Shown here: piece by piece, positions 6,742-43,613 of the stretch
Numbering within the stretch: the stretch's first letter is position 1
How the letters are laid out: each line of letters begins with the position of its first letter
Origin: Gammaproteobacteria bacterium
GTDB taxonomy: Bacteria > Pseudomonadota > Gammaproteobacteria > Pseudomonadales > Pseudomonadaceae
Length of the DNA: 64,000 nt
Assembly: GCA_023475025.1 (NCBI GenBank)
Contig: JAMCWB010000030.1
Coordinates: 1,853 to 65,852, forward strand
Direction: 5' to 3'
Notes under the pieces: model-generated
Seen by the model: the letters and a program-made list of their open reading frames with translations, nothing else
Databases searched by the model: none
Told to the model about the DNA's origin: nothing
Made by a program: the position numbers and the translations under genes

Positions 6742-7445
6742 TCCAACTGTTGACCTTTGATCTGGACAATACCCTGTGGGAAACCGAATCCGTGGTGCAG
6801 GCTGCCGAAAAGATCCTGCTCAACTGGCTGGATCAACAAGCCCCTTTGTTTACCCGCAATCTGGACAGCGATGCGCGCCGCGCCTTGCGTCAGCAAGTGC
6901 TGGCCATGGACCCCGAGCTACGCCACCGGGTAACCGATTTGCGCATTGCCGTACTGCGCCACGGCTTGCTCCAGGCCGGCCATCCTGAAGCTGAAGCCGA
7001 GGCACTGGCCTTGCAGGGCTTTGCGGTATTTCTTGACGCGCGCCATGCCGTCGAGCTGTTTCCGCATGCCGAATCACTGCTGGCTGAGCTATCAAAACAC
7101 TATGCACTGGCGACCATTTCCAACGGCAATGCCGATGTGCGCCGGCTGGGCCTGGACAAGTATTTTCAGGCGATTGTTTCGGCGGACGAAGTCGGCATCA
7201 GCAAACCCGCACCAGAGCCCTTTATGGCTGCGCTTGAGCGCGTCGGCGTGGAACCGGGCAATGCCCTGCACATTGGCGACCACCCCTCCGATGACGTGCA
7301 TGGCGCCCGCAGCGTCGGCATGGCCAGCCTCTGGTTCAACCGCCTGAACGCGCCCTGGCCAGAGGAACTCTCGCCGGCGGATGGCGAAGTGAAATGCCTG
7401 AGTGAGATCCAGCCCTGGCTGAAGGCGAACGGCGGTAAGTCTTAG
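6738..7445 (+). CDS. HAD-superfamily hydrolase (YigB-like)
   Basis: N-terminal DxD motif (TFDLDNTLW) and C-terminal [12 protein letters not shown] overlap with the xerC stop. Confidence 0.8.
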
Positions 7446-7620
7446 GCTGGAAGCTGGGAGCTGGGAGCTGGGAGCTGGGAGCTGGGAGCTGGGAGCTGGA
7501 AGCTGGAAGCTGGAAGCTGGGAGCTGGGAGCTGGGAGCTGGGAGCTGGGAGCTGGAAGCTGGAAGCTGGAAGCTGGAAGCTGGAAGCTGGAAGCTGGAAG
7601 CTGGAAGCTGGAAGCTGGAA
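7446..7620. repeat. Perfect tandem heptanucleotide array (GCTGGRA) x25
   Basis: 175 nt starting one base after the HAD stop codon. Unit variants run as GCTGGAA x1, GCTGGGA x6, GCTGGAA x3, GCTGGGA x5, GCTGGAA x10, with no spacers. Confidence 0.95.
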
Positions 7621-7714
7621 GTATCAGGGTGTGGGTGGGTTGTTGGGCTGTCAAGCCTGGATCTGGCCCCGGCGCTTTTGATGCTCTGTGGATTGCTTAA
7701 AGCTCGATGAACAT

Positions 7715-7824
7715 GGATTGCCACGCCGCTGCGCGGCTCGCAATGACGCCCAGCAGGGGCGGCAGCACTGGGTGTGAGGTTACTGCACGCTGTCATTGCG
7801 AAGGCCGCAGGCCTGTGGCAATCC
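7715..7824. repeat. Pair of inverted REP-like palindromic units (33 nt each)
   Basis: GGATTGCCACGCCGCTGCGCGGCTCGCAATGAC (7715-7747) pairs with the inverted GTCATTGCGAAGGCCGCAGGCCTGTGGCAATCC (7792-7824). The termini GGATTGCCAC / CGCAATGAC are shared, and each unit is internally self-complementary. Confidence 0.6.
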
Positions 7825-7879
7825 ATCCGAACCCGCCACAAAAACCAACAATCGTCAGCCCGGCAACTCGGTCTTAAAC

Positions 7880-8382: not shown

Positions 8383-9624
8383 TTACTTCTGAGTGAACTC
8401 GGGGTAGGCTTCCATACCGCACTCGGCAATGTCCGCACCCTCATACTCTTCTTCTTCACTGATACGCAGACCGATAGTGGCTTTGATAATGCCCCAGACG
8501 ATCATGCTGGCAATGAACACCCAGGCGAAGATGGCAATCAGACCGACGACCTGCGGACCGAAGCTGGCATCAGCATTAGTCAACGGAACAGCCAGAACAC
8601 CCCAGATACCGGCAGTACCGTGCACCGAGATAGCACCCACCGGATCGTCCAGCTTCAGCTTGTCCAGTGCCAGGATCGAGAAGACCACGATCACGCCACC
8701 AACGGCACCGATCAGCATGGCCTGGAAGCCACCCGGAGCCAGCGGCTCGGCAGTGATCGAGACCAGACCGGCCAGTGCACCGTTGATCATCATAGTCAGG
8801 TCAGTCTTGCCGAACAGGATGCGTGACACGATCATCGCCGCAATCAGGCCACCAGCAGCAGACAGGTTGGTGTTGACCAGTACCTGAGCCACGTTGTTGG
8901 CTGACTCGATGTCCGACATTTTCAGCTCGGAACCACCGTTGAAGCCGAACCAGCCCATCCACAGGATGAACATACCCAGGGTAGCCAGCGGCAGGTTGGA
9001 GCCCGGAATGGCGTTGACCTGGCCATTGGCACCGTACTTGCCTTTACGCGCACCCAGCAGGATCACACCAGCCAGTGCACCGACGGCACCCGCCATGTGA
9101 ACGATACCCGAACCGGCATAGTCGGAGTAACCGATCTCGTCCAACCAGCCTTCGCCCCAGCTCCAGGCACCCTGGATCGGGTAGATGAAACCGGTCATGA
9201 CCACTGCGAAAGCCAGGAAGGCCCACAGCTTCATGCGCTCGGCAACAGCACCGGAGATGATCGACATACAGGCACCAGCAAACACCAGCTGGAAGAAGAA
9301 GTCGGAACGGTTGGAGTAGTAAGGCGCATCATCGCCGCCGGCCAGTACTTCTTCAACGGTGTTTTCCGCACCGATCAAAAAGCCCAGGCTGGGGAAGATG
9401 GAGCCAGCAGAGTCATACATGATGTAGTAACCGATGATGAGGTACATCACCGAGGCAATCGAGTACAGCGCAATGTTCTTGGCCAGAATCTCGGTTGTGC
9501 TTTTGGCGCGGACCAGGCCCGCTTCGAGCATGGCGAAACCAGCCGCCATCCACATGACCAGGATACCTGCTACCAGAAAGTAGAACGTATCAATGGCATA
9601 ACTAGTGTGAAGGATCTCTTCCAT
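8383..9624 (-). CDS. amtB: Ammonium transporter
   Basis: Track ORF 8383..9639, with the start placed at MEEILHTSY (9624). It is a polytopic membrane protein with Amt-family motifs and is paired with glnK. Confidence 0.93.
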   Translation of the reverse strand: MEEILHTSYAIDTFYFLVAGILVMWMAAGFAMLEAGLVRAKSTTEILAKNIALYSIASVMYLIIGYYIMYDSAGSIFPSLGFLIGAENTVEEVLAGGDDAPYYSNRSDFFFQLVFAGACMSIISGAVAERMKLWAFLAFAVVMTGFIYPIQGAWSWGEGWLDEIGYSDYAGSGIVHMAGAVGALAGVILLGARKGKYGANGQVNAIPGSNLPLATLGMFILWMGWFGFNGGSELKMSDIESANNVAQVLVNTNLSAAGGLIAAMIVSRILFGKTDLTMMINGALAGLVSITAEPLAPGGFQAMLIGAVGGVIVVFSILALDKLKLDDPVGAISVHGTAGIWGVLAVPLTNADASFGPQVVGLIAIFAWVFIASMIVWGIIKATIGLRISEEEEYEGADIAECGMEAYPEFTQK

Positions 9625-9675
9625 TGGTAAGCCCCCCATATAGGCTTAGATGCAATGTAGTTGGTTGAAACCGCC

Positions 9676-10029
<354 letters not shown>

Positions 10030-10420: not shown

Positions 10421-10669
10421 ATGCTGCACAAGGTTCTGATAGGCGCGGTCAGCGGCCAGGCCGCCCGGCTATTAATGAGCGAAAAAGGCCTCTCACCGGC
10501 AGAAATGGAAAGTCGACTTAAAGTGCTGCTCAACAGCGCATTGAGTAAACTCGACGTCGTCAGCCGGGATGAATTCGAGACCCAGCAGGTGGTGCTGCAA
10601 CGCACCCGGGAAAAGCTGGAATCCCTGGAAAAGCGCGTCGCGCAACTGGAGCAGCAGCAGGAAGGCTGA
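10421..10669 (+). CDS. ubiK: UbiK/YqiC-family coiled-coil accessory factor
   Basis: ATG at 10421 within track ORF 10388..10669. It is 82 aa with a helical C-terminal LESLEKRVAQLEQQ. Its position between glnK and yifB matches Pseudomonas. Confidence 0.65.
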   Translation: MLHKVLIGAVSGQAARLLMSEKGLSPAEMESRLKVLLNSALSKLDVVSRDEFETQQVVLQRTREKLESLEKRVAQLEQQQEG

Positions 10670-16803: not shown

Positions 16804-16880
16804 GCACCCGTAGCTCAGCTGGATAGAGTACCGCCCTCCGAAGGCGGGGGTCACAGGTTCGAATCCTGTCGGGTGCGCCA
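16804..16880 (+). tRNA. tRNA-Arg (anticodon CCG)
   Basis: Cloverleaf read by hand: acceptor GCACCCG/CGGGTGC, anticodon stem CCGCC/GGCGG with loop CTCCGAA, T-arm ACAGG-TTCGAAT-CCTGT, and an encoded CCA. Confidence 0.9.
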
Positions 16881-30503: not shown

Positions 30504-30520
30504 AGCGAACATCGTGCCAA
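30504..30520 (-). promoter_or_regulatory. Sigma-54 (-24/-12) promoter P2
   Basis: The minus strand reads TTGGCACGATGTTCGCT, with correct GG-N10-GC spacing. It is about 60 nt upstream of the small-protein ATG and matches P1 at 16 of 17 positions. Confidence 0.65.
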
Positions 30521-30590: not shown

Positions 30591-30612
30591 AATATTACAT
30601 TTTGGTAATATT
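30591..30612. promoter_or_regulatory. AT-rich inverted repeat about 85 bp upstream of P2 (candidate enhancer/UAS)
   Basis: AATATTAC-N6-GTAATATT, followed by a third TATTAC. Confidence 0.35.
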
Positions 30613-30646: not shown

Positions 30647-31561
30647 CTACTCCTCAAAATAATCCGAGTCCAACCGTTTCACCTCGTAGGTCGCTATCGT
30701 GGAGACTCCAACCCCGGTGTCGATCATCAGGCTCACCAGCTTCTCGCCGTCAATCAGCACGATACGGGTATCAATGAGCGAGGCATACTCTATCGCTTCT
30801 GAGCTGAAGCTGGATGTAGTCAGGAAAACCCCTTTCTTGGCTCTCTGGCCCTGGAGCGCGCCGGCGAATTTCTGTATTTCGGGGCGGCCTACGGTACCTT
30901 CCCAACGCTTGGCCTGCAGGTAGATGACATCCAGGCCGAGCCGATCTTCCTTGATAACGCCATCAATACCGCCGTCGCCGGAGCGGCCGAGCGTCTGTCC
31001 TGCGTCCTTGCGCGAGCCGCCATAGCCGAGCCTTACCAGCAGCTCGACGACCAGGCGCTCGAAGAATGCTGGGGACGCAGCCTTGATTCTGGTTATGAGT
31101 TCTTCCTTTAGCTCCTCACGGACGGTCTGATAACCAAACTCCATATGTTCCGATGGTGTCAGTGTGTCCGTTTCGATGGAGCCCACCGGGGTGGCTGCTG
31201 CAGGCTTTTCGGGTTTGCTCCCCGACTGGAACGCTGTGTACTCATCAAACTGGCGCAGGTAGGACATATTTATTGGAGCTGCATCCTGCGCCAGCGCCTC
31301 CAGCCCTCGCTGGGTTATCCGATAGCGGGCTCGGCTGGGCGATTCAATCAGGCCGGCACCTTTGAGATGGGTTTTTGCCCAGCCTATGCGGTTATCAAAC
31401 AGCCGTGCGTAGCCACTGGGCAGCATTTCGGCCAGCTCGTCCTCGGTCAGCTGAAAATACCCGGCAAGATACTCGTTGGTTTCACGATTAGTCCGCACCG
31501 CTCCGTCAGCGAGGTGCTCCAGCAGAGGGCGCATGATTGTCTGGAAGTCGGGTATTGCCAT
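30647..31561 (-). CDS. mrr: Mrr-family type IV restriction endonuclease
   Basis: N-terminal Mrr_N-like wHTH and C-terminal catalytic core GDGGIDGVI...LQAKRW. Confidence 0.85.
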   Translation of the reverse strand: MAIPDFQTIMRPLLEHLADGAVRTNRETNEYLAGYFQLTEDELAEMLPSGYARLFDNRIGWAKTHLKGAGLIESPSRARYRITQRGLEALAQDAAPINMSYLRQFDEYTAFQSGSKPEKPAAATPVGSIETDTLTPSEHMEFGYQTVREELKEELITRIKAASPAFFERLVVELLVRLGYGGSRKDAGQTLGRSGDGGIDGVIKEDRLGLDVIYLQAKRWEGTVGRPEIQKFAGALQGQRAKKGVFLTTSSFSSEAIEYASLIDTRIVLIDGEKLVSLMIDTGVGVSTIATYEVKRLDSDYFEE

Positions 31562-31616: not shown

Positions 31617-32777
31617 CTACAGCTGGCCGGAGAAGGCTTGTTGGCTCAACGAGCTGGCTAATCTCTCCTGTGCTGCGAGAGCATCCAGAAGACGACCTCG
31701 GTGCGACTCAAAAGCTTTATAACGATCAAGGAAAGCTATTTGCTGCGCGTGCGGGGGCAAGGCCACTGGTGTTTTTGCAATCAACCCAACATTCAATGTG
31801 GGCTGGGCTACTGCACGAGTTTCCCGCTTGAAATAGCCTTGAACTACCGGACTCTGTAGGTAGCGATAAACATACTCGCGGTTTACGCCTTCACGAATAG
31901 GTATCCGCGTGACTGCTCGCGCAATATTCCATCCAATCATTGCATCGCTGGCCCAACCGACACGACCAATAGTGCCTACGCAAGCGATCAGAATTTCATT
32001 TCCTTTCAGCTTTGATTTCCTATGCTTCGAATCAATGCTTGCCGACACTCGCCTTAGCTGGGCGACGTCAGGAGTAACATCAGAAAGATCTCCAGACCTT
32101 ACCAATGGAACACCGTCCTCTTCGTGATCACCCGGCTGAACAACGCCGTAGTTCAATTTGTCATTGGGATCAATGAGCGTAGAAAGCTCAACGACATTCC
32201 ACCCCTTCGGATTCGTCACCGGATCACCAAACATCTCCAGAAACACGGCGCGGAGGAAGTCGTCGGCGAGCTGGATGGCTTGCTGGCGTTTGCGGCGAAT
32301 GGCGTCGGCCTTGTCGAGGATGGCGGCGATGCGCTTTTGTTCGGGCAGGGGTGGGAGGGGGATTTCTACTGCTTCAAGCTTGCCTTTAGTAATGTGCTTA
32401 AGGCCAACCCCGCCATGAGCCTGATCAATAATCAGGTCCAGCTTAGAATTTATTGCATATCGAAGATAATTTTTATCGATATGACGCTCATCAATATCAA
32501 CCCTAAAAATATGTTGATTTAGAAAGCCCTTGCCCCGATTCCAGAAGAATGCACCAAAGGAAGTCCCTGGAGTGCCAGACCAAGAGAAAAGCAAGTCCCC
32601 CGGATCCACGTGGAATCTTTTTTCCACCTCAAAATCGCAATAATTGAAAGGTTTAGTTTCATCATTGAGATTTTGGATTCGAACAATAGGAGTGCCCGAG
32701 GCCGACCACTCCTCCGGCTTAAATGCTCTCCCGTTCTGAAGGCTGCATACACTTCCAAAGGGAACGAGATTCATCAC
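31617..32777 (-). CDS. hsdS: Type I R-M specificity subunit
   Basis: 386 aa in a two-TRD layout with conserved LPPLPEQKRIAAILD and LPPHAQQIAFLD spacer helices. 4-nt overlap with hsdM. Confidence 0.88.
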   Translation of the reverse strand: MMNLVPFGSVCSLQNGRAFKPEEWSASGTPIVRIQNLNDETKPFNYCDFEVEKRFHVDPGDLLFSWSGTPGTSFGAFFWNRGKGFLNQHIFRVDIDERHIDKNYLRYAINSKLDLIIDQAHGGVGLKHITKGKLEAVEIPLPPLPEQKRIAAILDKADAIRRKRQQAIQLADDFLRAVFLEMFGDPVTNPKGWNVVELSTLIDPNDKLNYGVVQPGDHEEDGVPLVRSGDLSDVTPDVAQLRRVSASIDSKHRKSKLKGNEILIACVGTIGRVGWASDAMIGWNIARAVTRIPIREGVNREYVYRYLQSPVVQGYFKRETRAVAQPTLNVGLIAKTPVALPPHAQQIAFLDRYKAFESHRGRLLDALAAQERLASSLSQQAFSGQL

Positions 32778-34378
32778 AACATTCCCTCCAACTCATCCAG
32801 ATCCGCCATGATCTCCCGCTCCAGCGCCTTCAACCGCTGCAGTATCACCTTCGGGTCTTCGTATACTTCTTCCTCGTACACCACTTCCTTGTAGCGGTTG
32901 ATGGACAGATCGTACTTGTTGGCGGCGATATCGGCGGCGGGGACGACGAAGGCTTTCCGGGTCTTGTCACCAAAGATGGTGTCGATGCTGGAGGCCTTGA
33001 GGTTGCTTTCGACCATCTGCCGGTACTTGTGCCACTGGCCGATGGCATCGGGCAGGTCGTTGCTGCCCTCGCCTTTCAGCTCGGCGCGCTTGTCATCCAG
33101 CGAGTAGCCGTCGGCCTGCAGGTCATAAAACCACACACGCTCGGTGCTGCCGCCCTTGGTGAAGATGAGGATGGCGGTGCTGACGCCGGCGTAGGGTTTG
33201 AACACGCCGCTAGGCAGGCTGACGATGCCTTCGAGCTGGTTGTTGTCGAGCAGCTCCTGACGCAGTTGCTGGTGGGCCTTGGATGAGCCGAACAGCACAC
33301 CGTCCGGCACGATCACGGCGGCGCGACCACCGAGTTTGAGCGAGCGCAGGATGTGGGCGACAAACAGCAGCTCGGTCTTCTTGGTTTTCACCAGACCGAG
33401 CACGTCGGGGTTGGTGTTGCTTTCATCCAGGCTGCCTTTGAATGGCGGGTTGGCCAGCACCACATCGAAAAAGTTTTCTTCCTGCTCGGGGTAGTGCTCC
33501 TTGATCGATTTGCTCAGGGAGTCCTGGTACAGGATGTTGGCGCCATGCACGCCGTGCAGCATCATGTTCATGCTGGAGACGCGCAGCATGGTGGTATCGA
33601 AGTCGAAGCCCCAGAACATGCTGCGGTTGATGTGCTCACGGTAAGGCTCCAGCAGGTCGCCGGTGTAATGTTTGTTGCCGTCTTCATCGGTAAAGATGCC
33701 GGCTTCGCTGGAGTGCTCGCGGTTAAGGTATTCCATGGTGCGGGCGAGGAAGCCGGCGGTACCGCAGGACGGATCGCAGATAACATCGGTAGGCTGCGGG
33801 GCAACCAACTCGATCATGGCGTCGATGATGTGGCGAGGCGTGCGGAACTGACCGTTGATGCCGGCGGTGGTCAGTTTGCTCAGCAGGTATTCGTAGATAT
33901 CGCCCTTTACATCACTCTGGTTCAGCGGCAGGTCGTTGACCATTTCCACGGCGGAGGTCAGCACCGATTCGTTCTTGATCTCCAGATCGGCGTCCTGCAT
34001 GTATTCGCCGATATGCCCCAGCCCCTCCAGTGCACTGCCTTCATCACCCAGGCCATCGGCGTTGTCAGACTGCTTGCCCAATTTGGCAAAGTAGGGGTAA
34101 ACCTTGTGCCGGAGGTGGCTGTGCAGCTCCTTGCCGCTCATGTTGCGGAAGTTTTTCCAGCGCAGCAGCTGGCCTTCCGGGGTATTGGGAAACAGCCGGT
34201 CAAAGACCTTGCCGGTGCGATTGGCCTTGCGCTCGGCGACGTCTTCCTGCATGTCGAGCATGCGGGCGAACATCAGGTAGCTGATCTGTTCGATCACTGT
34301 CAGCGGGTTGGTGATGCCGCCGGTCCAGAATTTTTCCCAGAGTTTGTCTATGTCGTTACGGATTTTGCCAGTGAGCAT
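32774..34378 (-). CDS. hsdM: Type I R-M N6-adenine DNA methyltransferase
   Basis: Motif [11 protein letters not shown] and motif IV NPPFKGS, with an HsdM N-terminal domain. Confidence 0.92.
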
Positions 34379-34385
34379 GGGTGTT

Positions 34386-35450
34386 TCAATTGTCCTGTTG
34401 TGGTGTATCTGATTGGTATCGGGCGGCTGCTTCCTTCAGGCGCAGCACTCTTTCCCGTTCGCGCTCCAGTTCCCGTGCCAGTTCCTCTTCAGTGGGCAGG
34501 GCTGTGAGGTATTTGGAGGCGAACAATTGCTTGCTTTCGCTGAGCACGGAGTATTTGGCGACGGTGTTATTGCGCTCGCTGCACAGAATCAGCCCGATGG
34601 TCGGGTTGTCGTCGGGGCGGCGTTTGTGTTCTTCATACATGCGCACATACATGTCCATCTGGCCCACGTCCTGGTGGGTGAGCTTGTGCATTTTCAGGTC
34701 GATCAGCAGAAAGCATTTGAGATGAAAGTTGTAGAACACCAGATCGATGAAGTAGTCGCCGTCATCGGTGCGGATGCGTTGCTGGCGTTCGACGAAGGCA
34801 AAGCCCTTGCCCAGCTCCAACAGGAACTGCTGCAGGTTGGAGATGATGCCCTGTTCGAGGTCGCTTTCCTGCCAGGTTTTATCCGGCAGGTTGAGAAAGT
34901 CGAGGATGTAGGGGTCGCGCAGGTAATGTTTGGGATCATCCTGCAGCGGCTCGGTTTTCTCCTGTGCTTCCTGCTCGACAGTGGACTTGTCCTTGCTGGC
35001 GAGCAGGCGCTCGTAATACAGCGTGCCGATCTGGCGCTCCAGTGCGCGGACGCTCCAGTTCTCATCCGCCGCCTCATCCGCATACCACTGCCTGGCAGCA
35101 GGGTTCTCAATACGCATCAGGGTTCGATAGTGGCTCCAGCTCAAAACACTACGCAGTGTGTAGTGTTTTGGGAAAGTCAGGTAGAACTGCCGCATATTGC
35201 GCAGGTTGCCCACATCAAACCCTTTGCCAAACTCGGCCTGCAGGCGCTCTGACAACTGTTTGAGCTGCTGCTTGCCGTACTCTGCCCGCTGCTGCCCTTG
35301 CTGCTCCTGCTCTACAATCAAGCGGCCGATATGCCAGTAGGCCTGAACCATGTGCTGGTTGACCGCCTGCCTGACCTGCTGGCGGGCCTGGGCAATGACT
35401 TCTGCTATGGCCTGATAAAGCGTGCCCGGCACCAGATCCTTACTGGCCAT
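34386..35450 (-). CDS. YhcG/DUF1016-type PD-(D/E)xK nuclease-like protein
   Basis: Start placed at ATG 35450 (AGGAGG 7 nt upstream) within track ORF 34386..35489. The core reads [20 protein letters not shown]. The gene is inserted between hsdR and hsdM. Confidence 0.8.
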
Positions 35451-38400: not shown

Positions 38401-38835
38401 GTCGGCAACCTCAACAAACTCGGGAATGGTGTCGTGCTGCACACCGTAGTATTTGACGGCCATATACATGGCCAGCTGGTGCGATGTCTTCAATGCCAAC
38501 TGGGCATTGCGCAGGTCGCCTTCCGCACCATGGGCGGCGTCATTGCCCTGGATACGCAAAAAATTGATCTGATGGATCAGCGATTTGCTCACGCAGTCGG
38601 CAAATACCGGGTTTTTCACCAGATCGTAAAAGCTGGCCTGGGGCAGACGTGGAAGCGTCTCTTCCTTGTAGATGGTTTTGGTCAGCTCTTCGGCAAAGCT
38701 GCGCAACCGGGTCAACGCGCTGCCGGGGTCGACATGCAGTACCGCTTCGGCCAGCCCGCCAAGATTGGCCAGCACTTCATTGCCGGGGCGCAGAAATTCA
38801 AAATTCACTGATGTCATAAAGGCTATTGTGTCCAT
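35440..38835 (-). CDS. hsdR: Type I restriction enzyme R subunit with N-terminal DUF4145-like module
   Basis: Nuclease GRADYVLW...VIEAKKS, helicase QATGTGKT and ADESHRS, and an EcoEI-R-type C-terminal domain. The N-terminal 110 aa carry RIQGNDAAHG. The start is uncertain (38835 or Met7 at 38817). Confidence 0.9.
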   Translation of the reverse strand: MDTIAFMTSVNFEFLRPGNEVLANLGGLAEAVLHVDPGSALTRLRSFAEELTKTIYKEETLPRLPQASFYDLVKNPVFADCVSKSLIHQINFLRIQGNDAAHGAEGDLRNAQLALKTSHQLAMYMAVKYYGVQHDTIPEFVEVADPTAAIKGLQQSVSNYEKELSQKQEALQQVIAELEQQRTRNIEKLEPPARPDQQKRQRESQQVADSLQWNEAKTRTLLIDAMLLQAGWDVANPAQVGHEVEVDFPDNPSGKGRADYVLWGDNGQPLAVIEAKKSGNVSLQAGREQARMYADGFERMGMQRPVIFYSNGYETFIWDDAQYNTYRPVYGLYSKDSLEYLIYQRQYRVQALEKHNPQLSIADRPYQIEAIKTVAAHFQSQRRKALIIQATGTGKTRVAIALAELLLRTGWAKRVLFLCDRKELRVQADDAFKQNLPSEPRCVIGETSKVDQTARIFIATYPGMMNRFAQLDVGFFDLIIADESHRSIYNKYRDLFDYFDAMQVGLTATPVKFISRNTFDLFDCETTDPTFEFGLDAAINNEPPYLVPFRVKDLTTDFLRDGIHYSQLSEAQQRQLEEDLGEEEARQTTIAGKDIGRKIFSEDTDRIILENLINNGIQDDTGSLVGKTIVFAQRQDHAEHLEKLFCKLYPQYGSKVCKVIHNAIPHVETLIKEFKKPDNDFRIAISVDMLDTGIDVPEVVNLVFAKPVKSWVKFWQMIGRGTRLRPNLFGPGKHKSEFLIFDHYGNFDFFEQEYLEPEDTGSKSLLQTTFEARLQLAQAALKANHADAFDVAVELLQADINDLPDTSVAVKRELRVVHQLQQTPMLKTLDSKTQHLLSNTIAPLMSARVLRDKHATAFDKLIAGIQCCLVVQASCFEDGKTELLAELDRLAVNINAVRQKDAVIAEVRSAAFWQQPSIAKLEHARKELRSIMKYRQSGTGPGYDIGSTRTRDGNIQNNERQVYIAGANEAMIYRRRLKDILDAMLAANPTLQKIRQGEPIAEPELKTLTSTILTSHPGVSLEVLNEFYGRTADQLHLTVREIIGLDPQAIEEHFKRFLHNHPTLTAQQVRFMNLLKNYIAQHGSIVVDKLYEPPFDSISHEGIDGVFTPDDVGDLIAVLEPFIKQEAQHGQ

Positions 38836-38846
38836 GCTGGTTGAAT

Positions 38847-38863
38847 AGCGAAGATCGTGCCAA
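38847..38863 (-). promoter_or_regulatory. Sigma-54 (-24/-12) promoter P1
   Basis: The minus strand reads TTGGCACGATCTTCGCT, with GG-N10-GC spacing. It begins 3 nt after the activator's stop codon and ends 12 nt before the hsdR ATG. Confidence 0.65.
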
Positions 38864-38865
38864 CA

Positions 38866-40350
38866 CTATTCAATGCCGTACTTCTCCATCCAGTTAGTCA
38901 GCGTTTGCTGGCTTTTCAGACCCAGTAATTTGGCTGCTCGGGTCTTGTTACCTGCTGTCTGCTGCAGTGCCTGCTCTAGGTAAGGGCGCACAAATTCGCC
39001 AAGTAGCGCTTGTATATCAATGCCTTGAGAGACATCGAGCCCAGTTGACTTGTCCATCTTAGCAGGCATATCAAACAACGCACCGGCCATATCCTGTTGT
39101 TCGATAGTATCACCTTGGCACCAAAGTGCAGCCCGCACTAGTGTCGCTTGCAGTTCACGAACATTTCCTGGCCACGCATGCTGAAGTACAAGTTTTTTTC
39201 CTTCAGCAGAAATTTTCTTACCGGCCAGAGCGGTATCCTGCCTGCCGATTACCGCCAGCAGCGCTTCGCACAGCAGCAACAAATCACCCTCCCGCTCCCG
39301 CAAAGGCGGCAGATGCAGTACGCCCACTGCAACCCGGTAAAATAGATCTTCACGAAAGCAACCCGCTGCAACATCCGCCATCAGATTGCGGTGGGTCGCA
39401 GCAACCAGCCGGACATCCACACGTTGCTCTACTGACCCGCCCACTGGCGTACACACCCCTTCCTGCAACACTCTCAGTAGACGGACCTGAACGTCGGCCG
39501 CCAGCTCACCAAACTCGTCAAGGAAAAGGGTGCCACCGTCAGCCTGCTGGAAAACCCCAAGCCGGTCAGCAATGGCACCGGTAAAAGCCCCCTTTTTGTG
39601 ACCAAACAATGTTGAGTCGATCAACTCGGAAGGAATGGCGCCACAGTTCACCGCTACAAAGGGCTTGGCTGCTCGCGGCCCAGCATTATGGATCGCCCTG
39701 GCAAACAGCTCTTTGCCGGTACCGGTTTCACCATAGATCAGCACAGGTACCAGCTTTTGCGCTAGCACCTCTGCCTGCTGCTTAAGCAACAGCATGGTTT
39801 TATTTCGCGTGATGATATTGTCGAAGGCCGCATTAACCGGTGCCGCCTGCATGAGCATGTTGTTCAAACTGGCGGCACTGATTTCTGCGGCAGCCGGCAC
39901 ATACTCCGCAGCGATCTCAAAGGGTATGTCGATCTGCTGAACGCCCTGCTCCAGCGAGGATTGGTAATAGAGGGCGGGATAGCGCGTCTTGCCCAGCAGA
40001 ATCCATACTGCCTGCATCGCAGGCGTACCCGGACTGAGCAAAATGGCCAGAGGCTCACCGCTGCTCTGCAGCCTGCGCAAATGACGCTCTGCAGCCTGAT
40101 AAATCTCGGCAAAGTTGACCGGTGAGCTCAGGGGCTCGTGGTAAACATTCAGCGGCGTTTCGGTATTCTCCGCCAGCCAGGCGCGGTAGCTCTCCAGCTG
40201 CTCTGGCGGATAGGAACAAAGCAGTTCAGCCCTGGCAAAGCTGCCAGCATGCAATGTAGAAAGCACAGGGCCCGGCAGACCGCCAGCCGGCGCTTTGAGA
40301 TCATTCCCGCCAATCCAGCTCACCAGAATCGGCAACTGCTTTTTCACCAT
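38866..40350 (-). CDS. RtcR-like sigma-54-dependent activator (CARF - AAA+ - Fis HTH)
   Basis: The N-terminal CARF-type signature LLSPGTPAMQAVWILLGKTRYPALYYQSS parallels E. coli RtcR HITTGTHVAQICWFLL. The AAA+ module has GETGTGKE and GAFTGA. The C-terminal HTH reads NKTRAAKLLGLKSQQTL. ATG 40350 is preferred over TTG 40362. Confidence 0.8.
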   Translation of the reverse strand: MVKKQLPILVSWIGGNDLKAPAGGLPGPVLSTLHAGSFARAELLCSYPPEQLESYRAWLAENTETPLNVYHEPLSSPVNFAEIYQAAERHLRRLQSSGEPLAILLSPGTPAMQAVWILLGKTRYPALYYQSSLEQGVQQIDIPFEIAAEYVPAAAEISAASLNNMLMQAAPVNAAFDNIITRNKTMLLLKQQAEVLAQKLVPVLIYGETGTGKELFARAIHNAGPRAAKPFVAVNCGAIPSELIDSTLFGHKKGAFTGAIADRLGVFQQADGGTLFLDEFGELAADVQVRLLRVLQEGVCTPVGGSVEQRVDVRLVAATHRNLMADVAAGCFREDLFYRVAVGVLHLPPLREREGDLLLLCEALLAVIGRQDTALAGKKISAEGKKLVLQHAWPGNVRELQATLVRAALWCQGDTIEQQDMAGALFDMPAKMDKSTGLDVSQGIDIQALLGEFVRPYLEQALQQTAGNKTRAAKLLGLKSQQTLTNWMEKYGIE

Positions 40351-40860: not shown

Positions 40861-41094
40861 ATGACTACTCAATACCTAACCACCGACGAGCTTGCAGCTC
40901 GCATCAAATATGACGCCAGAACAATTCGCGACCGACTCAAGGATAGCGTTTTGCTTGAGGGCGTTCACTACATCCGACCCTTTGGTGGACGCAAAATTCT
41001 TTATATCTGGGAAGCCATTGAGCGAGACATGGGCGGCACATCCAACAGCCCTCTTGCCATCCCCATGGCCAACGGAGGTGTCATGCATGGCTAG
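40861..41094 (+). CDS. AlpA/excisionase-family small DNA-binding protein
   Basis: ATG 40861 after AAGGAG. The sequence LTTDELAARIKYDARTIRDRLKD..GVHYIRPFGGRKILY is typical of Xis/AlpA HTH proteins. It overlaps the int start by 8 nt. Confidence 0.75.
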   Translation: MTTQYLTTDELAARIKYDARTIRDRLKDSVLLEGVHYIRPFGGRKILYIWEAIERDMGGTSNSPLAIPMANGGVMHG

Positions 41095-42292
41095 TATCCG
41101 TGTACGAGAACAGACAGGAAAACTGTTCTTCGACTTCCGTTACCGTAACAAACGATGCCGTGAGCAAACGGCCCTGGATGACACACCTACCAACCGGCGC
41201 AAGCTGGAAGGGATTTTGAAAAAGGTCGAGGCCGAAATCACTCTGGGGACGTTCGAGTATGCTCGGTATTTTCCGGGCAGCAAAAATGCCCAAAAGTTTG
41301 GCGAGGCCGCGACAGCTCAGGCGCAACTCAAGCACCACGCAACGCCACTTTTTAGTGACTTTGCCGATACCTGGTTTGCCGAAATGCAGGCTCAGTGGCG
41401 ACGCTCGCACATTGATACGGTGGCAGGCACTTTGCGCGCCTACTTGAAGCCAGAATTTGGTGAGAAAGAGGTCGGCTCCATCACCAAGGCAGAGATTTTA
41501 TCTTTCCGTTCCCAGCTCGCCAAAGTCAGAAACGGTAAAGACAAACCGCTGTCAGCAGAGAGAATCAACCACATCATGACGCCTTTGCGCATGATCCTTA
41601 ACGAAGCAGCCGACCGGTACGAGTTTACCTCACCCTATCAGGGCATCAAATCGCTAAAGGTACCGCGGACTGATGTAGAGCCGTTTACCGTCGACGAGGT
41701 CAAGCTGATCCTGCAAACGGTGAGGGCCGATTTTAAAAACTATTACACCGTGCGCTTTCTGACCGGAATGCGCACCGGTGAAATTGATGGGCTGCAGTGG
41801 CAATTTGTCGACTTTGAACGCCGACAAATTTTGGTGCGCCAGGCTCTGGTCAGAGACGAGCTGGTTTACACCAAAAATGATGGATCATTCCGCACCATTG
41901 ATATGTCCGGTCCAGTCTATGACGCACTGCAGGAGCAGCATAAAGCGACCGGTCAATTCGACTACGTGTTCTGCACGCGCAACGGCAAGCCTATCGCCCA
42001 CCGCAATATCACCCAACGGGTGTGGTACCCCTTGTTGCGGCACCTGGGACTACGTAAACGGCGGCCCTATCAAACCCGCCATACCGCAGCAACGCTTTGG
42101 CTGGCAGCAGGCGAATCGCCGGAATGGATTGCCCGCCAAATGGGCCATACCACCACCGAAATGCTGTTCCGCGTTTATTCCCGCTATGTGCCCAACCTCA
42201 CACGCCGTGACGGCTCTGCCATGGAACGTTTGCTGGTCAGTGAATTCAACCAAGCCAGCCATTCCGATGCTCAGGAGAAAGAACATGCTTAA
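41087..42292 (+). CDS. int: Tyrosine integrase with N-terminal arm-binding (DUF3596-type) domain
   Basis: ATG 41087 after GGAGG, within track ORF 40892..42292. The N-terminus reads IRVREQTGKLFFDFRYRNKRCRE. Catalytic motifs are GMRTGEI, TRHTAATLW and VYSRY. Confidence 0.88.
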   Translation: MASIRVREQTGKLFFDFRYRNKRCREQTALDDTPTNRRKLEGILKKVEAEITLGTFEYARYFPGSKNAQKFGEAATAQAQLKHHATPLFSDFADTWFAEMQAQWRRSHIDTVAGTLRAYLKPEFGEKEVGSITKAEILSFRSQLAKVRNGKDKPLSAERINHIMTPLRMILNEAADRYEFTSPYQGIKSLKVPRTDVEPFTVDEVKLILQTVRADFKNYYTVRFLTGMRTGEIDGLQWQFVDFERRQILVRQALVRDELVYTKNDGSFRTIDMSGPVYDALQEQHKATGQFDYVFCTRNGKPIAHRNITQRVWYPLLRHLGLRKRRPYQTRHTAATLWLAAGESPEWIARQMGHTTTEMLFRVYSRYVPNLTRRDGSAMERLLVSEFNQASHSDAQEKEHA

Positions 42293-43468: not shown

Positions 43469-43613
43469 GGGAGGTCAGTGCTGCCATGGTTGTACGTCAG
43501 CCGCAAGCTTGACTTGGGCGAAAGCCATGCCAGTATAAATACTGATTATCCATACAGCTTTATGGCGAAAGGTAAGCCTTTAGCCCGCTATCAGTTTCCT
43601 ATCGGAGCTTAAT

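Follow-up and report, generated by a model that had tools for sequence, protein, structure and literature searches.

The usual description of Type I restriction enzymes is one of constitutive transcription, with control exerted post-translationally. Classical sigma-54 promoters are typified by glnAp2, with TGGCAC at −24 and TTGCA at −12, glnAp2 also having TCGC at −12, and the gene for the sigma-54 activator RtcR is divergently transcribed from rtcBA. Furthermore, genes for RtcR homologues have been located at the 5′ end of “superoperons”, in which Type I restriction-modification (R-M) genes “almost always directly follow[s] CARF genes” and the last place is taken by a Type II CoCoNuT (Bell, Sahakyan, Makarova, Wolf and Koonin, eLife 2024, PMC11090510). 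RtcR-like control or induction of the downstream genes was proposed in that article, and a promoter dependent on an upstream activating sequence (UAS) as well as “internal RtcR-independent promoters” were expected; in the passages covered by the search, the word “promoter” occurs once and no promoter is mapped. Leaderless mRNAs, in turn, are described as carrying a 5′-terminal AUG that is translated without a Shine-Dalgarno (SD) sequence (Beck and Moll 2018, cited in PMC12754779). The present analysis concerns a 64,000-nt stretch of the gammaproteobacterial contig JAMCWB010000030.1 (hereafter the window, in whose positions all coordinates are given), in which a predicted sigma-54 promoter, P1, lies between the gene of a CARF-domain sigma-54 activator and hsdR in a defence island encoded on the minus strand. 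P1 is very probably a functional promoter in the regulon of this activator, and the explanation as a whole, in which P1 yields a leaderless hsdR mRNA, is considered likely from comparison of related sequences.

The island shares with the superoperons of PMC11090510 the CARF-ATPase-HTH activator, the Type I R-M module directly after it, the TerY-P triad, the genes CnuH, CnuE, CnuB and CnuC in last place, and the NxD GTPase. Compared with the parts of that article on these loci, the features added here are a conserved sigma-54 promoter abutting the activator stop codon, a 12-nt spacing from it to an ATG without an SD, and a second promoter of this kind heading the CoCoNuT module. The first-pass annotation of this DNA had regarded an enhancer-dependent promoter as unusual for Type I R-M; this has to be tempered, since RtcR-like induction had already been proposed in PMC11090510, although no promoter is mapped in those passages. 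The RtcR/rtcBA system of E. coli and Salmonella, whose activator has a divergent CARF domain, shares with the window locus the succession of CARF, sigma-54 AAA+ and HTH domains and a sigma-54 promoter as the target. By contrast with that system, the activator in the window has no match to PF06956, its downstream targets are defence genes, and the promoter is co-directional and located at the 3′ end of the activator gene. P1 also shares with glnAp2 and other classical sigma-54 promoters the GG and GC placed 10 nt apart; whereas the classical promoters are followed by an untranslated leader with an SD and have an intergenic enhancer at about −100 to −150, P1 has the start codon at its start site, and the 1.5 kb upstream of it are the activator’s own coding sequence. 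With leaderless mRNAs, the predicted hsdR mRNA has in common an AUG at or within 1-2 nt of its predicted 5′ end, the absence of an SD, and strict use of ATG. Type II R-M systems controlled by C proteins and BREX and Shield systems controlled by WYL/BrxR proteins resemble this locus in that a regulator gene heads the defence locus and is proposed to time or restrain a toxic nuclease; those regulators are repressors or activators of the sigma-70 type, whereas the window activator is an ATP-dependent enhancer-binding protein acting on an all-or-none sigma-54 promoter.

Literature searches combining sigma-54 with hsdR, bacterial enhancer-binding protein (bEBP) with R-M, and CoCoNuT with RtcR returned no promoter mapping, most subscription journals lying outside their coverage. 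This promoter is undescribed in the Shield paper, where sigma-54 is unmentioned, in a 2025 survey of the sigma-54 regulon, and in a 2025 preprint that lists a similar island, RtcR included, in P. aeruginosa PAK. No leaderless mRNA from a sigma-54 promoter was described in the literature searched, the nearest case being pexR of Myxococcus, which is leaderless from a sigma-A promoter. If the predicted transcript is confirmed, the hsdR mRNAs would be, as far as this search shows, the first described family of leaderless mRNAs from sigma-54 promoters. The locus furthermore provides a testable handle on the published hypothesis of RtcR-like CARF induction, as it specifies which bases make up the promoter, which codon is the start, and which element may be an enhancer.

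On the minus strand, read 5′ to 3′, the region from the activator stop codon to the hsdR start codon is TAG-TGT-TGGCACGATCTTCGCT-12 nt-ATG. The stop codon TAG (38868-38866) is followed by TGT, the promoter TGGCACGATCTTCGC (38862-38848), T plus 11 nt, and the ATG (38835-38833), and the entire 30-nt gap between the two genes is taken up by P1. The GG and GC of P1 are 10 nt apart, the single mismatch of TGGCACGATCTTCGC to TGGCAC-N5-TTGC is TCGC in place of TTGC, and the site fits the extended consensus TGGCACG-N4-T(T/C)GCT. With C38848 taken as −12, position +1 falls on 38836, and the A of the first ATG (ATG1) is +2, or +1 with a one-base slip. The first-pass annotation had read the minus strand as TAG-TGT-...-ATG with a 10-nt separation of GG and GC, had counted a transcription start at about 38836, and had placed the hsdR ATG at 38835 and the next in-frame ATG (ATG2, Met7) at 38817; this reading is exact, and its counts are all correct. 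Scoring with a sigma-54 position weight matrix (PWM), which it had also proposed, was carried out with a matrix built from the family and assigns 28.6 bits to P1 and 18.8 bits to P2, the second promoter of the island. One point weighs against P1, and favours the alternative that the motif is a chance match without function: TGGCAC-N5-TTGC is not enriched in the window, with 8 matches at no more than one mismatch against 8.9 expected. This count is in itself uninformative, and P1 is regarded as more than chance because a near-identical second copy is present in the island and its position is conserved in related loci.

This conservation was assessed by scanning species-representative genomes, among which 315 loci encode the activator’s CARF domain; 80 of these were retrieved, and 73 have a complete activator gene. 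A GGC-N9-GC motif is located 0-25 nt past the activator stop codon in 67 of the 73, almost always in the form TGGCA(C/T)-N5-T(C/T)GC, and the distance from stop codon to motif is 3-5 nt in 48 loci. In an ungapped alignment of 44 distinct sequences, the only invariant intergenic columns are G6, G7, C8, G18, and C19, and the five-base spacer varies freely; the ATG is also invariant, but was a requirement for selection. Fixed GGC and GC elements around a free spacer are, as judged from this alignment, the signature of a sigma-54 promoter. The pattern does not match a conserved protein-coding remnant or a palindromic operator. The motif is found in Pseudomonas, Stutzerimonas, Halopseudomonas, Marinobacter, Microbulbifer, Marinomonas, Alteromonas, Thalassolituus, Pectobacterium, Xenorhabdus, Vibrio, and Methylotenera, and the same architecture is present on an Azotobacter plasmid. 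The position, the GGC/GC columns, and the spacing are thus kept in 67 loci of many genera whose neighbouring synonymous sites have diverged, and the comparison makes a chance match extremely improbable, this alternative being effectively refuted by conservation. The claim that a sigma-54 promoter is squeezed between the activator stop codon and hsdR is strongly supported by the invariant GGC/GC and by its recurrence in these loci.

Promoters of the same type also occur in other positions: the window has P2, and L005/L007, L073, and L075 carry further sites. In L045, the promoter and the 12-nt gap remain joined to hsdR at a distance of 469 nt from the activator gene. No R-M module follows the activator in L005/L007, L057, L070, L073, and L075, where the promoter directly precedes other cargo: in L005/L007, L057, and L070, a likely vWA/TerY-type gene (MSxLKKFQ..ARPLP), assigned from its N-terminal sequence only, and in L075 and L073, a small, apparently hydrophobic protein (MKKMCS...). 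Since the cargo differs, the activator and promoter together behave as a portable regulatory cassette. A widespread gammaproteobacterial lineage, represented by the 315 related loci, appears to place a nuclease subunit under an all-or-none, signal-dependent sigma-54 promoter, which in the hsdR arrangement is fused to the start codon, and this layout, which is conserved in dozens of bacterial species, suggests that DNA restriction is switched on only upon a signal. In a few loci (L036, L066, L067, and L074), the activator gene is truncated, apparently by a frameshift in L036 and L074, in which hsdR and its sigma-54 site are still present; strains with a truncated activator would have silent restriction if activation is essential.

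The position of the start codon relative to the promoter is likewise conserved. In 48 of the 67 loci, exactly 12 nt separate the first ATG from the C of the −12 GC, and in several more the gap is 12-13 nt when incidental ATGs are discounted. The base 5′ of this ATG is always C or T. Transcription starts usually favour a pyrimidine at −1 and a purine at +1, and the invariable pyrimidine therefore fits the A of the ATG as +1. SD strength was expressed as the energy of the duplex with the anti-SD sequence (in kcal/mol). In the window, this energy is +1.9 for ATG1 and −3.0 for ATG2, in agreement with the first-pass statement that neither candidate start codon has an SD, and the family mean for ATG1 is −2.3 (47 loci with the 12-nt gap that keep ATG2 18 nt downstream), indistinguishable from that of random positions (−2.1); the values for other genes of the island are listed in Table 1. 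Among the related loci, three lineages with longer leaders of 24-36 nt (L052, L063, and L065) have SDs of −8.0 to −10.3 kcal/mol before ATG1, not before ATG2. In three others (L047, L068, and L059), hsdR is internal to an operon and without the promoter; it has AAGGA-type SDs (−5.3 to −8.8 kcal/mol) and a different, shorter N-terminus that lacks the six-codon extension between ATG1 and ATG2. This extension evolves, by the pattern of its substitutions, like coding sequence: non-consensus letters number 71 at third positions versus 36 and 45 at first and second positions, the wobble is seen in Ile codons (ATC, 16; ATA, 13; ATT, 8) and Asp codons (GAC, 19; GAT, 10), and a 3-nt in-frame deletion in L042 and L043 preserves the frame.

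From this comparison, the P1 transcript probably has its 5′ end at ATG1, or no more than 1-2 nt from it, and uses ATG1 as the start codon. The earlier prediction of a leaderless or near-leaderless hsdR mRNA is supported by the fixed 12-nt gap and by the restriction of SDs to the long-leader and operon-internal variants. The evidence that weighs against a start at ATG1 favours an alternative in which P1 is real but translation begins at ATG2, on an A/U-rich, SD-less leader of 19-20 nt, so that the mRNA is not truly leaderless. ATG2 is conserved in 41 of the 44 aligned sequences at a fixed distance of 18 nt, HsdR homologues outside this arrangement begin just before the SNFxFL motif, the Prokaryotic Genome Annotation Pipeline (PGAP) annotates hsdR from ATG2 in P. 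luteola, and L046, whose ATG at the 12-nt position is immediately followed by a stop codon, must use ATG2. A start at ATG2, however, leaves the fixed spacing of 12 nt between GC and ATG1 unexplained, ATG2 is itself SD-less at its −3.0 kcal/mol, and L050, in which the second ATG is absent, must start at ATG1. The placement of SDs before ATG1 in the long-leader loci and the third-position variation of codons 2-6 also oppose it, and initiation at ATG2 is regarded as unlikely. On the P. luteola plasmid (NZ_CP044084.1; L082, locus 10482-10531), the PGAP start is the second ATG, at locus 10531, and the first one, at about 10513 as counted from the L016 sequence and in the conserved 12-nt position, is unannotated; public start calls for this hsdR family thus disagree with the comparative evidence.

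The activator shows a visible GAFTGA motif and Walker A in its translation, and its N-terminal 180 residues were unannotated in the Pfam scan. This N-terminal domain defines a close-knit family, in which LVSWIGGNDL and LLSPGTPAMQAVWILLGKTRY are motifs. Its AlphaFold2 model is confident and Rossmann-like (pLDDT 83), and the top 20 Foldseek matches in the PDB are all CARF proteins, including Csm6, Can1, Card1, Cad1, Can2, Cam1, and ring nucleases, with E values down to 6e-5. The CARF fold of the N-terminus, together with the sigma-54 domain and the HTH, identifies the protein as a predicted CARF-AAA+-HTH enhancer-binding protein of the RtcR type. The activator has no match to the Pfam RtcR model PF06956 at E ≤ 0.01, a precomputed match to this model is carried by 2 of 64 homologue fragments, and neither rtcA nor rtcB is found beside the activator, its downstream genes being hsdR, hsdM, hsdS, and defence genes. 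By these comparisons, the activator is RtcR-like but not an RtcR orthologue. A small HTH gene of the XRE type is located upstream of it (Table 1).

In the mechanism that we infer, RNA polymerase with sigma-54 (RpoN) would bind the GG at −24 and the GC at −12 of P1 and wait as a closed complex. Sensing of a ligand by the CARF domain would lead the activator, presumably from an enhancer, to hydrolyse ATP and open P1, and transcription would start at the A of ATG1 (38835) or at the base preceding it. The hsdR mRNA so made, with a 5′-terminal AUG and no SD, would be translated in the leaderless mode, and the same transcript probably runs on through the YhcG gene, hsdM, hsdS, and the Mrr gene. P2, with an enhancer-like TTAC-N6-GTAA repeat at −108, would drive the module of TIR, TerY-P, and CoCoNuT genes.

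This mechanism has to be weighed against the absence of a terminator between the activator gene and hsdR, from which it follows that read-through transcripts must also exist. In an alternative explanation, hsdR is expressed mainly by read-through from the activator’s promoter, and the sigma-54 site is a roadblock or insulator in the form of a closed complex, or fires weakly. Such a function would be in keeping with the lack of both a terminator and spare DNA between the two genes, with the failure to find a P1 enhancer, and with an RNA hairpin in related loci that would exist only in read-through RNA. In those loci, a covarying inverted repeat brackets the −12 element, and the promoter spacer pairs with positions −8 to −3, as in GGTCC/GGACC, GCCTT/AAGGC, and GGCTCT/AGAGCC (alignment A2, columns 10-15 with 24-29; e.g., L015:9589-9643). 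Pairing is found in 77% of cells versus 20-48% in slid controls, double changes number 30 versus 12.7 in shuffles, and about 30 of the 44 sequences have a minimum free energy of −7 to −13 kcal/mol; an AGGA-like sequence is present in the 3′ arm at several loci. The hairpin is not present in the window copy (38836-38862, −1.8 kcal/mol) and is therefore not counted as part of the window locus. Expression by read-through is, however, difficult to reconcile with an internal, SD-less AUG, which would be poorly translated from such RNA, and the exact spacing from the −12 element to the ATG has no role in a pure roadblock. Furthermore, in L045, where hsdR is remote from the activator gene, the promoter has stayed with hsdR, and P2 and similar promoters occur in true intergenic DNA with leaders and SDs. 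Taken together, expression mainly by read-through appears quite improbable, and activation of P1 by the CARF protein remains the preferred explanation.

Inducible restriction raises the question of how self-cleavage of the cell’s DNA is prevented. A translational gate between modification and restriction may be envisaged, although it is put forward tentatively and is on balance doubtful. Constitutive read-through mRNA would give HsdM and HsdS but not HsdR, and only sigma-54 transcripts from P1 would give HsdR. On read-through mRNA, the hsdR AUG would be internal and SD-less, and would also be preceded by the hairpin in the roughly 30 of 44 members that have it, though not in the window. The downstream genes, including hsdM and hsdS, are SD-bearing or translationally coupled and hence would be made from this mRNA. 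If this were true, the cell would always be methylated, and the nuclease would be armed only on firing of the CARF sensor; translation in the leaderless mode may also continue when infection compromises canonical initiation.

With regard to enhancers, the inverted repeat TTACCAAAATGTAA is the sole TTAC-N6-GTAA in the 64-kb window and lies upstream of P2. The same repeat is present at −107 in L005/L007 and, with one mismatch, at −97 before the second promoter of L073. These positions make TTAC-N6-GTAA a likely, credible candidate enhancer for the intergenic promoters of the regulon. Two further points weigh against the explanation as applied to P1. The repeat is absent from the corresponding position upstream of P1, for which no enhancer was identified, and of P1-type promoters in general, and the upstream regions of P1 and P2 share no similarity (local alignment score 17 versus 16.6 ± 2.0 in shuffles). 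The absence of the repeat is attributed to the fact that the DNA around −100 encodes the activator’s own HTH. Three patches of the activator gene have frozen synonymous sites (39010-39027, codons 439-447; 39190-39216, codons 379-387; and about 38876-38915, codons 479-491) and use codons ending in A or T in GC-rich hosts as well, a pattern suggestive of overlapping elements at the DNA or RNA level. These patches are the only enhancer candidates for P1. The strongest of them is CAAGGCATTGATATACAA (codons 439-447), in which the third-position entropy is 0.14-0.35 versus about 0.95 as the typical value of 2-fold codons; nothing corresponding to it is present upstream of P2.

The Type I R-M trio downstream of P1 is identified together by Pfam, with HsdR containing a nuclease and a superfamily 2 (SF2) motor, HsdM an N6-methyltransferase, and HsdS two target-recognition domains, and hsdR, hsdM, and hsdS are accordingly a predicted Type I R-M system. 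The order of activator, hsdR, a variable insert of 0-3.5 kb, hsdM, and hsdS is kept in about 55 of the 80 loci. The first-pass annotation had suggested that hsdM and hsdS are perhaps outside the control of P1, and this finds no support. The DNA upstream of hsdM is the 3′ end of whatever gene precedes it, with gaps of mostly about 7-50 nt, and in L059, in which the order is M-S-R, a sigma-54 site is located directly before hsdM; these observations do not support hsdM/S having a promoter of their own. No conserved promoter region accompanies hsdM across the loci, promoters within coding regions being possible, and a sigma-70 scan gave 4 matches versus 6.5 in shuffles, the only match near hsdM overlapping the hsdM start codon.

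P2 (TGGCACGATGTTCGC) is located in a true intergenic region and heads the CoCoNuT module. A terminator-like stem followed by the U-tract UGUUUUUAUU lies between the Mrr gene and P2, and would end the R-M transcript and leave the CoCoNuT module dependent on P2. A simple scan for terminators gave no meaningful match between genes (12 versus 11.9 expected) and missed this stem, and Rfam detected no known RNA element in the island. The P2 module starts with a 94-aa open reading frame (ORF) with a strong SD, followed by a TIR protein of the CAP12/Pycsar type, and contains the TerY-P triad of vWA, PP2C, and Ser/Thr kinase. Its CoCoNuT genes encode a CnuH-like, UPF1-like helicase (AAA_11/AAA_12), a CnuE-like protein, a CnuB-like, McrB-like AAA_5 protein (NxD GTPase), and a CnuC-like, McrC-like protein (DUF2357). 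The protein after the UPF1-like helicase has 523 aa, and a weak winged HTH was found in the scan of the CoCoNuT genes. The McrB-like protein has a TANHDE motif (NxD, not NxxD) and a long charged coiled-coil region. By its predicted gene content, the island is a superoperon of a Type I R-M system and a Type II CoCoNuT.

Table 1. Positions of the promoters, genes, and candidate regulatory elements of the island, with anti-SD energies of selected genes
Feature	Position	Strand	Basis or remark	Anti-SD energy (kcal/mol)
Small XRE-type (Cro/C1-like) HTH gene, upstream of activator	40725-40465	−	Judged from translation	
CARF-AAA+(GAFTGA)-HTH_8 sigma-54 activator, RtcR-like bEBP	38866..40350	−	Pfam Sigma54_activat 2.4e-64, HTH_8; CARF about 39900-40350	−8.4
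Embedded element CAAGGCATTGATATACAA in activator coding sequence, candidate enhancer	39010..39027	−	About −191 from P1 start; frozen synonymous sites	
P1, predicted sigma-54 −24/−12 promoter TGGCACGATCTTCGC	38848..38862	−	GG 38861/38860, GC 38849/38848; family PWM; conservation	
Predicted P1 transcription start	38835..38836	−	From −24/−12 nomenclature; 12-13 nt past C of −12 GC	
hsdR, 1131 aa	35440..38835	−	Pfam DUF4145, HSDR_N, ResIII, EcoEI_R_C; ATG1 38835, ATG2 (Met7) 38817	
YhcG/DUF1016 PD-(D/E)xK nuclease gene, between hsdR and hsdM	34386..35450	−	Pfam YhcG_C 4e-57	−10.3
hsdM	32774..34378	−	Pfam N6_Mtase, HsdM_N; 7 nt past YhcG stop	
hsdS, two Methylase_S target-recognition domains	31617..32777	−	Pfam; 4-nt overlap with hsdM	−9.8
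Mrr-type restriction endonuclease gene	30647..31561	−	Pfam Mrr_N, Mrr_cat	−5.6
Inverted repeat TTACCAAAATGTAA, TTAC-N6-GTAA, candidate UAS for activator	30595..30608	.	Centred at −108 from P2	
Terminator-like GC-rich stem, then UGUUUUUAUU (U-tract), between Mrr and P2	30533..30570	−	ViennaRNA fold	
P2, second predicted sigma-54 promoter TGGCACGATGTTCGC	30505..30519	−	14/15 identical to P1; ~63-nt leader; strong SD before ATG 30430	
Small ORF after P2	ATG 30430	−		−10.3
Module predicted to be driven by P2	17289..30430	−	Pfam; small ORF, TIR protein, TerY-P triad, Type II CoCoNuT genes	

Two other matches to the promoter motif in the window are of note. The third PWM match, ACTGGCATGGCTTTCGCCCA (43515-43534, minus strand, 14.7 bits), is in the gap between two plus-strand genes, antisense toward an HD-domain gene, and was set aside since its score is near chance (0-2 matches of at least 14 bits per 400 kb of shuffled sequence). 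A perfect TGGCAC-N5-TTGC at 9027-9041 (plus strand) is antisense within an amtB-like gene (8383-9639, minus strand) that adjoins a glnK-like gene (9676-10014), and is probably a chance match or an intragenic sigma-54 site not related to the island.

The island ends at its CoCoNuT end beside a tRNA-Arg(CCG) gene (16804-16880), and its G+C content is 0.52-0.58 versus about 0.60 in the flanking DNA. A tyrosine integrase gene (40892-42292) lies beyond the activator end, about 24 kb from tRNA-Arg(CCG), and the low G+C content runs on to about 58 kb, where several adjacent islands may be present. Outside the island, the ORF at 7092-7841 encodes a repeated SSFQLPA heptapeptide, which points to a tandem DNA repeat of roughly 21 nt.

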